A stretch of 63,951 bases of DNA, counting the filler. It is 5 parts of 5 records of this genome, joined end to end, with 100 filler letters (N's around TTAATTAATTAA, not from the genome) between each part and the next. Parts side by side here need not be neighbours in the genome. Positions count along the whole stretch, not along the records: positions 19,574 to 41,798 come from DRR723986_10580; 4 more parts are not named here. One strand, given 5' to 3'. Made by a program: the position numbers and the translations under genes. Below the pieces are notes generated by a model. That model had not been told where the DNA came from and made no database searches. It was given only the letters and a program-made list of their open reading frames with translations. Of the stretch, positions 9,696 to 58,161 are shown one piece after another; position 1 is the first letter of the stretch; each line of letters starts with the position of its first letter.

Positions 9696-9795
9696 NNNNN
9701 NNNNNNNNNNNNNNNNNNNNNNNNNNNNNNNNNNNNNNNTTAATTAATTAANNNNNNNNNNNNNNNNNNNNNNNNNNNNNNNNNNNNNNNNNNNN
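9696..9795. other. artificial contig linker
   Basis: N-run / TTAATTAATTAA (stops in all frames) / N-run, 100 nt. Confidence 0.98.
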
Positions 9796-19473: not shown

Positions 19474-19573
19474 NNNNNNNNNNNNNNNNNNNNNNNNNNN
19501 NNNNNNNNNNNNNNNNNTTAATTAATTAANNNNNNNNNNNNNNNNNNNNNNNNNNNNNNNNNNNNNNNNNNNN
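19474..19573. other. artificial contig linker
   Basis: N/TTAATTAATTAA/N spacer. Confidence 0.98.
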
Positions 19574-25915: not shown

Positions 25916-27046
25916 ATGGCCCATCGAAAGATCTATCTGAACCACGCAGGAACAAGCTGGCCGAAGCCGGAATGCGTGGTGGAAGCGGTGAGAGCCGCAA
26001 TGCAGCGTTCGCCTGACGAGTGGCCTTCCCAGTTTGACGTAGCGCACCGGAAGATCGCCAAGTTCTTCGGCGTGGCAAATCGCGATGAACTATTACTGAC
26101 ACCAGGCTGCACGTCATCGCTGGCAACCGCTGTGTCGGATGTGAATATTCCTGATGGCAAGCGCGTCTTGACCAGCGGATGGGAACATCACGGCCTGATG
26201 CGACCACTTCAAAAACTCGCCGAACAGGGCATCCAGGTTGACCAGATACCGATTGCCACAGGTTCCGCCGGAGAGTTTGCGGGCTTGATCGATCTGGAAT
26301 GGCTGGAAGAACAGCTAGCTGGGGGCGACGTTGGATTGGTCGCAATCACGGCGGCTTGTAACGTCACTGGCGAAATATTGCCCTACGAAGAAGTCGCCAG
26401 AATTACGAACGAATATCGGTGCACAAGTTTGTTGGACGCCGCACAGTTGGTCGGCTTGCACAAGTTGGACTTTGACAGGATCGGTGCCAGCATCATCGCC
26501 TTCGGTGGGCACAAGGGACTTCAAGCACCTTGGGGCATCGGAGGGCTTTACGTCAAAGACGGAGCGCCGATGCAGTGTGTAGATGCAACTTGCGAACTCC
26601 CGCAGGAACGCACGGCTGCGCCAGAGCGACCGGGCTACTGTGATGTCGGTTCGGTTGATCAATTCGCGCTTGCGGGACTCAGCGCCGCAGTGGATTATCT
26701 CGAGAATCAGGACCCGGTTGCTACGTTAGAAAAAGCTAGGTCACACATTCAGATGCTTCGCTCACGTTTAGCAGCCGTTCGCGGCATTCGTTTTTACGGT
26801 GGCAGCCTTGATGGACTTCCAACTCTAGCATTTGTCATTCAGGGAGAAAGCAGCAGCAAGACTGCTCAACGCCTGGCTTCGCAAGGCATGGTTGTCGGGG
26901 CCGGTCTGCAATGCGCACCAACGGCGCACGAAACACTCGGCACAAGCGAGACTGGTGTGGCGCGCATTTCCGTGGGCATCGGACAGGACGAGGCCGAAAT
27001 TGAAGAAGCCGCTAGCCGGATAGAAAGTGCTCTTGGCACCAACTAA
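25916..27046 (+). CDS. class V PLP aminotransferase, cysteine desulfurase-like
   Basis: YLNHAGTSWPKP, EHH, CNVTG, DAAQ, GHKGL, GLQCAP. Confidence 0.88.
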   Translation: MAHRKIYLNHAGTSWPKPECVVEAVRAAMQRSPDEWPSQFDVAHRKIAKFFGVANRDELLLTPGCTSSLATAVSDVNIPDGKRVLTSGWEHHGLMRPLQKLAEQGIQVDQIPIATGSAGEFAGLIDLEWLEEQLAGGDVGLVAITAACNVTGEILPYEEVARITNEYRCTSLLDAAQLVGLHKLDFDRIGASIIAFGGHKGLQAPWGIGGLYVKDGAPMQCVDATCELPQERTAAPERPGYCDVGSVDQFALAGLSAAVDYLENQDPVATLEKARSHIQMLRSRLAAVRGIRFYGGSLDGLPTLAFVIQGESSSKTAQRLASQGMVVGAGLQCAPTAHETLGTSETGVARISVGIGQDEAEIEEAASRIESALGTN

Positions 27047-27688: not shown

Positions 27689-27792
27689 GTAGCACGGAGG
27701 TCCCCACCGTGAATTAGGGATGTCACAGGTAAGCGTGCGTGATACCGTTGAACGCGTCAGATAGTAAATGCAGGCAAGCTGCCTGCACTACG
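27689..27792. repeat. GTAG-family REP pair
   Basis: GTAGCACGGAGGTCCCCACCGTG and inverted ATGCAGGCAAGCTGCCTGCACTACG; the latter matches 41769-41792 with one mismatch. Confidence 0.7.
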
Positions 27793-39672: not shown

Positions 39673-39863
39673 CAGGCTTTCAACAGTTCAGACGCGTACT
39701 CGTGCCAAAAATCCGGGTTTGTATTTTCCGGCACGACTTGGCATGCGTAAAGACGCAAAGCGTTGGCGGCACGCCACTTTCCTACATTCTCCGCAATTCG
39801 TCACGGCTACGGTGGAGGCAAAGAATGCAGTTGCGTCAATCTAGAAGCCCGCGCGGTTCGTAC

Positions 39864-41438
39864 CTAGCTGACGCGGCGGAGTGCATCGCGGAGTCGTTGG
39901 CCTTCGCTGCGATCAACGGATTCGATGAAGGCGATCATTCCGGACAACCACCCGCGAAAATTCGCGTGACCATCGCGGTTCTGCGCGTCGAGCCCTTCGA
40001 ACTGTGCACGGTGGAGGATTGCCCGTATGCGACGGCGGGTCTTCCGAGAGACACCCACTCGGTCGTTAGTCGTCAGTCCCGTCACCACTTGACGTTGGTG
40101 CTTTCGAAGCACACGTGTCTTTGCTGAATTGAGTGCAAAGCCCTCGTCTTCGCAGATATGACGCAATCGTGCGAGAACGTAACCGATCTGCTTTTCTTTC
40201 TCGTGCATCGAACTCTGCTTAGCAGAGAACGATAGATCATCTGCGTAGCGAGTGTAAGTCCAGCCGAGTTTGCTAGCCAGACCACTGAGCCGAACGTCAA
40301 GATGCCTGCTGGTTAAATTAGAAAGCGCCGGACTGGTACAAGCTCCTTGAGGAAGACTGGGTAAGCCGCTGGCGACCAAGTATTGCTCTTGACGGTAACT
40401 AACGGCTGTCCGGCGACTCTCTGTACACAGGCTTGCCATCAGAGTAGCTACAGCGGGTGAATAGCCCAGGGATCGAAACAGGCCTTCGATGCGATAGAAG
40501 TGGATAGACGGAAAGAAGTCTTTCAAGTCCACACTGATGAGAATGTCCGCCCCGACGTGCGGAGTGGCCCCCGTTGTAATGCTTCGGCCTTGAACGAACC
40601 CGTGCGCCGAATCGTGAGCGGGTAACATGTTCAGCACATTGTCCAGTATCCATCGTTGGACGCTGGCCAACAATGGAAGCGGCCGTGCTAGTTCGCGTTC
40701 CCCGCCGCTTTTCTTTGGAATCGTAAAGTGAACGTAGTGGACCTGTTTTGCCGCCTGGGCATGAAAGGCGAGCCAGCGGAGTTGCGGGATCGTGATGCCG
40801 ATTGCACCAGCCAGATCAGCAGGCGTGCTCAGCAATGGAAGCTGGTTCTGGCGAAGCATCTCGATGTTACTGCGCCGATCCGACAACCCCTTGGAGATTC
40901 CTCTACCAATGTAGACAATGTCGGTGCGACGATTCTGCTCGACCCTCGCGCGGTGCTCATCGCGCCGCCGCTGTGCCTCTGCCTTCTTTTGCTGCTTGAG
41001 GCGTTCACTTTCCTGGCGAGACTGGCGAACTGCGGCATCACCGATGGCTCGCGTTGCCGCAGCATCCTTTCGGTACTTGGCCATCTCCAAGCCGACTTTG
41101 TGTATCTCGACCAAGTCATCGTCGCTCAAGATTCCCATCGATACCATGGTTCGATCAATAATGCGAATCCGTGGGAGATCAGCGGGCGGAATCTCGTTGA
41201 GCGAATCGAGATAAGCCGACTGCCAGCCGTCCGACTTCGTTAGCGAAAGTGCTTCTTCGGCGGACAGTGGTTGGAAATGTGACGCGTCCAGGCCGGATTC
41301 CAGTTCGGATGGAGCGGTGCGAGCATCGTGCAGCGAATTGCTGCTGTCGGTTAAGGTCGCGGGTAGTTGCGAATAGTCATTTCCGGGCTGTTGCTGGCCA
41401 GGCGAGACGAGACGCTTGAGGAAATCAAACAGTCCCAT
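39864..41438 (-). CDS. retron-type reverse transcriptase with long N-terminal extension
   Basis: IPKKSGGERELARP, AHGF, GATPH (region X), DLKDFFPSI, LPQGACTSPALSN, YTRYADDLSFS, VVTGL (region Y). Confidence 0.92.
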   Translation of the reverse strand: MGLFDFLKRLVSPGQQQPGNDYSQLPATLTDSSNSLHDARTAPSELESGLDASHFQPLSAEEALSLTKSDGWQSAYLDSLNEIPPADLPRIRIIDRTMVSMGILSDDDLVEIHKVGLEMAKYRKDAAATRAIGDAAVRQSRQESERLKQQKKAEAQRRRDEHRARVEQNRRTDIVYIGRGISKGLSDRRSNIEMLRQNQLPLLSTPADLAGAIGITIPQLRWLAFHAQAAKQVHYVHFTIPKKSGGERELARPLPLLASVQRWILDNVLNMLPAHDSAHGFVQGRSITTGATPHVGADILISVDLKDFFPSIHFYRIEGLFRSLGYSPAVATLMASLCTESRRTAVSYRQEQYLVASGLPSLPQGACTSPALSNLTSRHLDVRLSGLASKLGWTYTRYADDLSFSAKQSSMHEKEKQIGYVLARLRHICEDEGFALNSAKTRVLRKHQRQVVTGLTTNDRVGVSRKTRRRIRAILHRAQFEGLDAQNRDGHANFRGWLSGMIAFIESVDRSEGQRLRDALRRVS

Positions 41439-41476
41439 CGGTGTTACTCCGCGAAGCCAAGCTGAAGATGTTGAAA

Positions 41477-41714
41477 TGCCGAGTGGTGCGAGCGAGCTTT
41501 GCTAACTTCATTCCACGGACCAAAGACGTTCACCAAGGCCGACTCCGCCTATGTGGACGATCGAAAGCCTTGGCTTGATCGTGGTCGATCGCCACATAGG
41601 CGGAGTCGGCCAAACGAACAACGGCTTCTGGGGATGAATGTCTGAGAGTCTCCAACCACGGCGGATCGCCGCAGCAAGCTAGTCTTAGTTCGGCTGCGCC
41701 ACGCACCACCGGCA
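41477..41714 (-). ncRNA. putative retron msr-msd RNA
   Basis: Terminal inverted repeats 41702-41714 and 41477-41490; short msr-like stems; perfect 20-bp stem 41537-41556/41592-41611; directly upstream of the RT. Confidence 0.8.
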
Positions 41715-41722
41715 GTACCGCC

Positions 41723-41751
41723 AATGTACCGCGCCCACTAACCATTTTCCA
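41723..41751 (-). promoter_or_regulatory. candidate sigma70-type promoter of the retron
   Basis: TGGAAA-17 nt-TACATT ending 8 nt before the first inverted-repeat arm. Confidence 0.45.
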
Positions 41752-41768
41752 GGACCGCAAGTCCCCAC

Positions 41769-41792
41769 CGTAGTGCAGGCAGCCTGCCTGCA
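41769..41792 (+). repeat. GTAG-family REP at the contig end
   Basis: CGTAGTGCAGGCAGCCTGCCTGCA, same family as 27768-27792. Confidence 0.75.
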
Positions 41793-41798
41793 ACCGGC

Positions 41799-41898
41799 NN
41801 NNNNNNNNNNNNNNNNNNNNNNNNNNNNNNNNNNNNNNNNNNTTAATTAATTAANNNNNNNNNNNNNNNNNNNNNNNNNNNNNNNNNNNNNNNNNNNN
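41799..41898. other. artificial contig linker
   Basis: N/TTAATTAATTAA/N spacer. Confidence 0.98.
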
Positions 41899-58061: not shown

Positions 58062-58161
58062 NNNNNNNNNNNNNNNNNNNNNNNNNNNNNNNNNNNNNNN
58101 NNNNNTTAATTAATTAANNNNNNNNNNNNNNNNNNNNNNNNNNNNNNNNNNNNNNNNNNNN
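58062..58161. other. artificial contig linker
   Basis: N/TTAATTAATTAA/N spacer. Confidence 0.98.

Follow-up and report, generated by a model that had tools for sequence, protein, structure and literature searches.

The minus-strand segment at positions 41477-41714 can be identified with high confidence as the msr-msd template RNA gene of a type XIII retron of the Mx162/Mx65/Ne144 class, with the reverse transcriptase (RT) gene (39864-41438, minus strand) lying 38 nt downstream. The locus is an ordinary type XIII bacterial retron, and the kind of element to which it belongs is already known. What is directly established is the architecture of the RNA, its conservation and covariation beside homologous RTs, and the family of the RT itself. 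A preliminary description, made from the sequence of the window, had proposed a readable msr-msd architecture with a long msd hairpin at this position, and this proposal is borne out both by the presence of an RT_XIII gene downstream and by the recurrence of the architecture, with compensatory change, upstream of homologous RTs.

Genomic setting of the locus

The window, by which is meant the whole stretch of 63951 bases that was analysed, consists of at least five contigs strung together by linkers of the form N44-TTAATTAATTAA-N44 at positions 9696-9795, 19474-19573, 41799-41898 and 58062-58161, so that gene neighbourhood can be read within each contig but not across those points. The msr-msd gene sits on the contig at 19574-41798, approximately 85 nt from the contig end. 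The order on the minus strand is msr-msd followed by RT, and the gene downstream of the RT encodes a U32 peptidase (Pfam) that is 51% identical to one in the genome carrying locus L001, a relative discussed below; no relative of this peptidase was found in four other genomes at 1e-20. A promoter scan of 39700-41798 returned no sigma-70-like promoter, a scan of this type being uninformative for this kind of organism. A search of the RNA against Rfam 15 at E<=1 gave no match to a retron family. Two miRNA-precursor families matched on the palindrome, but at 33 and 32 bits they fell well below their gathering scores (62 and 100) and were treated as chance.

Architecture of the template RNA

The RNA gene, bounded by the outer limits of a1 and a2 (41477-41714, minus strand), is supported by its fold and by two covariance models, R1 and R2, that are described in the next section. 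Its predicted folding energy is -122.6 kcal/mol, compared with -84.5 kcal/mol (sd 4.8) for dinucleotide shuffles (z = -7.9), and none of 200 shuffles folded as well. The fold, the inverted-repeat search and the alignments together support an a1 arm, the 5' inverted repeat, at 41685-41714 and an a2 arm, the 3' inverted repeat, at 41477-41505. The two arms (41714-41685 with 41505-41477) pair in blocks of 5, 8, 4, 3 and 4 bp, approximately 24 bp in all, separated by bulges and a 4x4 internal loop. The inverted-repeat search recovered 8 nt at the heart of this pairing (41483-41490 with 41702-41709). The terminal pairing originally proposed, 41714-41702 with 41490-41477 and a single bulge, is present in the fold as a 13-bp stem with one bulge, but the a1/a2 helix is longer than was claimed, this stem being lengthened by GGCG/CGCU and AGC/GCU.

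Inside the a1/a2 helix lies a short msr hairpin at 41655-41675 on the minus strand, GCUGCGGCG-AUC-CGCCGUGGU, with 9 bp and a 3-nt loop. Its helix (helix 2) is 98% paired in A4 and its sequence is nearly invariant, and it is likely to serve as a putative RT recognition element. The GGCG-ATC-CGCC hairpin of the preliminary description is recognizable as the top of this 9-bp stem. The neighbouring stem that had been drawn between CGCAGC (41698-41693) and GCTGCG (41675-41670) appears neither in the minimum-energy fold nor in either of the consensus structures obtained by comparison; its bases belong instead to a1 and to the msr hairpin. One contig from a public sequencing run (X4, depth 2.7) differs from the window at 41668, with G>A on the plus strand and hence C>U in the msr hairpin RNA, a change that turns a C-G pair into U-G; among the relatives that column holds CG in seven cases and UG in four.

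The msr hairpin is followed by a single-stranded msr-msd linker, CAUUCAUCCCCA, at 41629-41640 on the minus strand, which includes a CAUGCUUCCCCA-like block conserved in alignments A4 and A6. The msd long stem-loop occupies 41520-41631 on the minus strand, is found both in the fold and as an inverted repeat, and corresponds to helices 4-7 of A4, which are 85-96% paired. The base of the msd stem is conserved (CCA.AAG.CGUU / AACG.CUU.UGG and GGCC/GGCC). Above it stands a perfect 20-bp stem (41592-41611 with 41537-41556), the sequence of which is variable among relatives, with a further 7-bp extension, CGAUCGA/UCGAUCG; the inverted-repeat search and the fold both contain the stem and the extension, as had been predicted. 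Every helix, together with the two invariant G residues considered below, is intact in the RNA of the window.

Conservation and covariation upstream of homologous reverse transcriptases

Pattern-seeded scans yielded 160 loci with RT relatives, none of them exceeding 50% identity to the RT of the window. The two closest, L001 (titled an Isosphaeraceae MAG) and L036 (titled a Polyangiaceae MAG), both have an architecture like that of the window just upstream of the RT, with terminal repeats that are long and entirely different in sequence, an msr hairpin nearly identical to that of the window, and a long stem, with arms that have no sequence in common, set between conserved flanks, GUUGUUCNUUUGGCC ... 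GGCCUUGGUGAACG. When the window, L001 and L036 were aligned, 64 consensus pairs emerged, and 25 of these show compensatory change. The nhmmer profile built from these three sequences matched only the two seeds among the 160 loci, indicating that sequence alone does not carry the family and that covariance models are needed. The first such model, R1, was derived from the three-sequence alignment; R1 and the second covariance model, R2, match 41490-41700 on the minus strand with 194.9 and 182.8 bits, and no other site in the window matches strongly.

Of 401 Planctomycetota genomes searched in six frames, 94 contained RT relatives at E<=1e-40. Nine of the relatives were full-length, at 46-51% identity, and for every one of them R1 has a match immediately upstream of the RT (97-196 bits; the seed L001 is among the nine). 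Strong R1 matches were also present in three of 151 Myxococcota genomes (83-197 bits, again with one seed among them). Alignment A4, which comprises 11 sequences, is fitted to the structure of the model, so that its pair counts are biased towards that structure: 90.0% of its cells pair, as opposed to 33-46.5% when the partners are displaced by 1-3 columns; both members have changed in 40 of 64 pairs; and none of 500 shuffles reached the alignment on any of five measures. Compensatory change affects 15 of the 16 modelled pairs of the a1/a2 helix and all 10 pairs of helix 7, the modelled msd stem. Because of the bias in A4, a structure-blind control, A6, was made from 13 sequences aligned with MAFFT alone and subjected to free RNAalifold prediction; the helices of A4 were recovered, with compensatory change at 37 of 52 pairs.

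The reach of the family is extended by R2, which at E<=0.01 matched 39 of 94 sources, the window not being counted among them. Each of these matches lies upstream of the RT and on its strand, and they include loci titled Burkholderiales, Niastella/Chitinophagaceae and Bacteroidota, the Niastella/Chitinophagaceae loci having been missed by R1. A simple rule, which asks for a hairpin of 14 bp or more inside an outer stem of 12 bp or more, is passed by 36 of 61 stretches upstream of RTs, by none of 58 stretches inside the RT gene and by none of 53 further upstream. The structured RNA that characterizes retrons, with its a1/a2 helix, msr hairpin, long msd hairpin and covariation, is present beside the RT.

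The reverse transcriptase gene

The retron RT gene (39864-41438, minus strand) encodes a protein of 524 amino acids (P0001) with an N-terminal extension of approximately 190 residues. The best PADLOC model for it is RT_XIII (3.2e-149, 495.9 bits, residues 125-523), the runner-up is RT_other at 352.8 bits, and the best 25 of 60 PADLOC matches are all to retron RT models; Pfam RVT_1 matches at 3.5e-14. By its RT_XIII profile the protein belongs to RT clade 10, the clade of type XIII retrons. The reading frame is open, and the catalytic YADD and VTG motifs (RYADDLSFS and RQVVTGLTTN, read from the translation) are intact. Region X lacks the expected NAXXH motif, having GATPH at residues ~290-295, and the Asn of this motif (NA..H) is retained in 11 of 12 RT relatives, the exception being L169 with SARVH. 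The validated Mx65 and Ec48 RTs also carry another residue in place of this Asn (PMC6868368), so GATPH is best regarded as a variant that need not inactivate the enzyme.

The N-terminal sequence MGLFDFLKRL is kept in relatives, which supports the assigned start codon. Residues 1 to ~125 fall outside the RT_XIII match and are nevertheless common to the full-length Planctomycetota and Polyangiaceae relatives, including an MG(F/L)FDWL start; as judged from the sequences compared, they form a conserved N-terminal module. The nearest RT relatives are only 46-51% identical to the protein of the window.

Priming site and proposed synthesis of msDNA

In all 13 sequences of A6 the a1/a2 stem ends in an invariant A-U pair, followed by an invariant unpaired G on the 5' side and an invariant G on the 3' side. 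In the window the invariant A-G lies 3' of the a1 stem at 41685-41684 and the invariant G-U lies at the inner end of a2 at 41506-41505, so that a G at 41684 (minus strand, context CUAA-G-AC), the predicted priming or branching residue, faces a G at 41506 (minus strand, context GAA-G-UUAG), the predicted first templating base. Two opposing G residues at the inner end of a1/a2 have been described for retron RNAs (PMC7736814), and the priming motifs CAGC and GAGC, of the general form xAGx, are quoted for Mx162, Sa163 and Mx65 (PMC6868368). The corresponding motif is GAG(A/C) in 12 of the 13 sequences and AAGA in the window. By analogy with these xAGx motifs, and from its invariance, the priming G is most likely 41684. 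The earlier suggestion of a branching G at 41700 does not hold up, that position being located inside the a1 arm.

The steps of msDNA production proposed for this locus follow the established retron pathway (PMC7736814, PMC6868368). The transcript would fold with a1 (41714-41685) paired to a2 (41505-41477), and the RT would bind the conserved msr hairpin (41675-41655), probably its docking point on the folded transcript, and prime from the 2'-OH of G 41684. Copying would begin opposite G 41506, proceed towards the 5' end of the RNA through the msd stem-loop (base at 41631), and stop in or near the conserved CAUCCCCA linker, at approximately 41631-41640; the linker at 41629-41640 is the likely zone in which reverse transcription terminates. 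RNase H would then clear the template to leave a branched, RNA-linked single-stranded DNA of ~126-135 nt, which would refold into a long hairpin with a conserved tip of the AAGC-CAAG-GCUU type. On this scheme the sense sequence of the predicted msDNA corresponds to 41506-41635 on the plus strand, as deduced from the template start at 41506 and the msd base at 41631, with a predicted 5' end at the complement of G 41506 and an uncertain 3' end. The predicted length is in keeping with the RT-DNA of roughly 120-150 nt that was originally envisaged. Any role in defence is inferred, as are the priming G, the point at which copying starts, the stop site and the length of the msDNA.

The tip of the msd hairpin

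The msd stem ends in an apical mini-hairpin, AAGC-CAAG-GCUU, at 41565-41576 on the minus strand (helix 9; 88.6% paired in A4 and present in A6). The tip motif CAAGCC(R)AGGCUU recurs among relatives as AAGC-CRAG-GCUU, and covarying forms, AACCC/GGGUU and GACUC/GAGUC, also occur, with variants in L036, L164, L192 and L193. The middle apex helix, by comparison (modelled helix 8), is not conserved, being 53% paired in A4.

The preliminary description had envisaged a two-state or branched tip, in which an alternative pairing, ACGATC..AAGCC/GGCTT..GATCGT, competes with the simple hairpin. Such a switch, in which CGAUCG-like repeats would re-pair into two functional conformers, is feasible on paper, as three CGATCG-type repeats allow ACGAUC/GAUCGU to replace CGAUCGA/UCGAUCG, and the AAGCC/GGCTT portion of the pairing survives as the conserved apical mini-hairpin. 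The energetics do not favour it, however: the best fold makes up 88.5% of the ensemble for RNA and 56% for DNA, the alternative is worse by 5.1 kcal/mol as RNA and by 3.8 kcal/mol as DNA, and no such state appears within 2.5 (RNA) or 2.0 (DNA) kcal/mol of the optimum. The CGAUCG repeats are, in addition, not conserved in relatives, and helix 8 is paired in barely half of cases. A functional switch at the tip is very unlikely.

The contrast between the msd stem, which varies freely, and its 12-nt tip, which is conserved and covaries across Planctomycetota and Myxococcota, raises the possibility that the tip of the msDNA, or of the RNA template, is a docking site recognized by its sequence, either by the SWIM/winged-helix partner or by the long N-terminal extension of the RT. 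This suggestion is tentative, and the odds are rather against it. If it were true, the tip would constitute a recognition element that is not pointed out in the type XIII literature consulted, and retrons of this class would be an example of a specific DNA loop being read by the partner protein.

Partner genes and the contig end

Type XIII retrons are expected to have an adjacent SWIM/winged-helix (DEDE) protein, usually accompanied by a HEAT/ARM or WGR protein. In the window, no SWIM_XIII or HEAT-ARM_XIII match was obtained with PADLOC among 33 other ORFs, the expected slot for these genes being cut by the contig end at 41798. Of these ORFs, 30 had been chosen by eye, so as not to overlap, from a set of 50 that were 180 aa or longer, and three were additional. 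The order in L036 is HEAT-ARM_XIII (3.3e-142), SWIM_XIII (4e-168), RNA and RT, and in eight of the nine full-length Planctomycetota relatives the RNA is directly preceded by a SWIM_XIII gene that has the orientation of the RT and terminates 400-577 nt before the RT match. In the window the contig continues for just 360 nt upstream of the RT; a partner gene, if present, would therefore lie wholly beyond the break, and its absence cannot be read from the window.

The exception among the nine is L001, for which no SWIM_XIII or HEAT-ARM_XIII was found in nine picked flanking ORFs, within 3.5 kb upstream and 6 kb downstream. In that genome (G001) the RNA-RT cassette is on contig C41 and a full-length SWIM_XIII stands alone on C29, and on a further contig, C9, a second RT adjoins a SWIM_XIII that is split into two frames. 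The L001 system may be dispersed or decaying, or its arrangement may be an effect of the assembly.

A perfect short palindrome, (CGTAG)TGCAGGCAG-N-CTGCCTGCA, is found at 41774-41792 and again at 27769-27787, two copies on the contig where shuffles predict none, and the copy at 41774-41792 is common to contigs from public runs whose flanks are unrelated. The palindrome resembles a scattered repeat of the REP type, and it is probably responsible for the end of the contig at 41798, the point at which partner genes would begin. None of the sequencing runs listed for the locus is an RNA run. The contigs of the four DNA runs that contain it are fragmentary, with depths of 2-10, and none spans the stretch; one 58-nt run contig of depth 2 matches 41534-41563 and then diverges, and is too weak to interpret. 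Elsewhere on the same contig, the ORF at 25916-27046 on the plus strand matches PADLOC SspA (6.7e-29) and DndA (9.7e-28), and it is most likely a housekeeping cysteine desulfurase, since other Dnd/Ssp components were lacking among the ORFs scanned.

Alternative interpretations

The existence of a scattered palindrome at 41774-41792, which recurs at 27769-27787 and in run contigs with other flanks, shows that this genome carries elements of that type, and it might be asked whether the long hairpin is itself a genome-wide REP/MITE-type palindrome, or a terminator, that adjoins the RT by chance. Several observations make this scarcely credible. The 20-nt msd arm occurs once per strand in the 63951-base window, R1 and R2 find a single site there, and no terminator-like site was called on the hairpin; across several phyla, moreover, the stem keeps its place relative to the RT while its sequence changes wholly, with every pair of helix 7 compensated. 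A reading of the hairpin as a repeat or terminator is largely refuted on these grounds. Recurrence of the hairpin as a scattered repeat, and a lack of covariation upstream of homologous RTs, had been named in advance as the findings that would tell against the msr-msd assignment; what emerged from R1, A4, A6 and R2 was conservation with heavy compensatory change upstream of RTs and no sign of a scattered repeat within the window, and neither contrary finding was therefore made. The coding alternative, an 87-aa ORF at 41530-41793 on the minus strand, owes its place to mechanical ORF listing. That frame crosses both arms of the perfect 20-bp palindrome, and the variation among relatives is compensatory pair by pair and includes indels of 1-2 nt that would break the frame, so that the chance of the region encoding this peptide instead of an RNA is close to nil.

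A different question is whether the retron, although structurally intact, is an orphan or in decay, without partners or with an RT weakened by the N-to-G substitution, and so forms no functional complex of msDNA and effector. The 33 scanned ORFs without a type XIII partner are compatible with this, as is the presence of GATPH in place of NAxxH, and the closest Planctomycetota relative, L001, likewise has no partner in its nine flanking ORFs, its SWIM_XIII being on another contig. The RT frame is nevertheless open with YADD and VTG in place, the helices and both invariant G residues of the RNA are undamaged, and the position occupied by SWIM in eight of the nine relatives would fall just past the contig end. 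An orphan or decaying retron is improbable on this balance.

Relationship to known retrons

Type XIII retrons have been defined by their own ncRNA family and by SWIM and HEAT/ARM partners (Mestre et al. 2020, PMC7736814), and RT clade 10 type XIII includes Retron-Mxa1/Mx162, Mxa2/Mx65, Sau1/Sa163 and Nex2/Ne144 (PMC7736814). A full-text search of the literature found no functional study of type XIII retrons, and a defence role for the retron of the window is assumed by analogy with other retron types. The finding leaves general knowledge of retrons unchanged, and it is mildly new only in the invariant apical mini-hairpin and in the Gly of RT region X. Its contribution to the class is one further msr-msd gene with well-defined limits. 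The alignment pins a predicted priming site for the whole subfamily, the A-G and opposing G of all 13 sequences, and separates the part of the template that is free to vary, the long stem, from the parts that are fixed, namely the msr hairpin, the stem base and the apical mini-hairpin. Such data are of use in designing expression tests or in reusing the retron as a DNA-producing tool.

The likeness to the Mx162/Mx65/Sa163/Ne144 group, drawn by profile and from published descriptions, is evident in both the protein and the RNA. RT_XIII is the best profile, and the RT has an extended N-terminus, as do the myxococcal RTs (PMC6868368). The order of msr-msd followed by RT, the long a1/a2, the short msr hairpin and the long msd hairpin are all of the type XIII pattern; the a1-to-a2 span of 238 nt in the window is comparable with the 241-nt primary transcript of Mx162 (PMC6868368), and AAGA conforms to the xAGx priming context seen as CAGC and GAGC in Mx162, Sa163 and Mx65. 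Relatives with the window type of RNA carry SWIM and HEAT/ARM partners. The differences are that the RT of the window is at most 51% identical to any relative found, that its region X has Gly for the Asn of NAxxH, and that its partner genes are past the contig end. Three type XIII RNA models have been published, firmi, Ne144 and Mx162/Mx65 (named in PMC13712802), and because R1 is strong in just three of 151 Myxococcota genomes, the RNA of the window may belong to a subfamily other than Mx162/Mx65, perhaps one that is Ne144-like. The SPIRE survey of 2026 listed 26 type XIII candidates in Planctomycetota with SWIM as a recurrent partner (PMC13712802), a description that agrees with the adjacent SWIM_XIII in eight of the nine full-length relatives identified here. 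Retron-Eco1 (Ec86) and other enterobacterial retrons share the general layout (PMC7736814), in which a1 and a2 form a stem, the priming G at its inner end faces another G, msr has stem-loops and msd folds into a hairpin; the RT clade and the partners are different, and the msd of the window is much longer.
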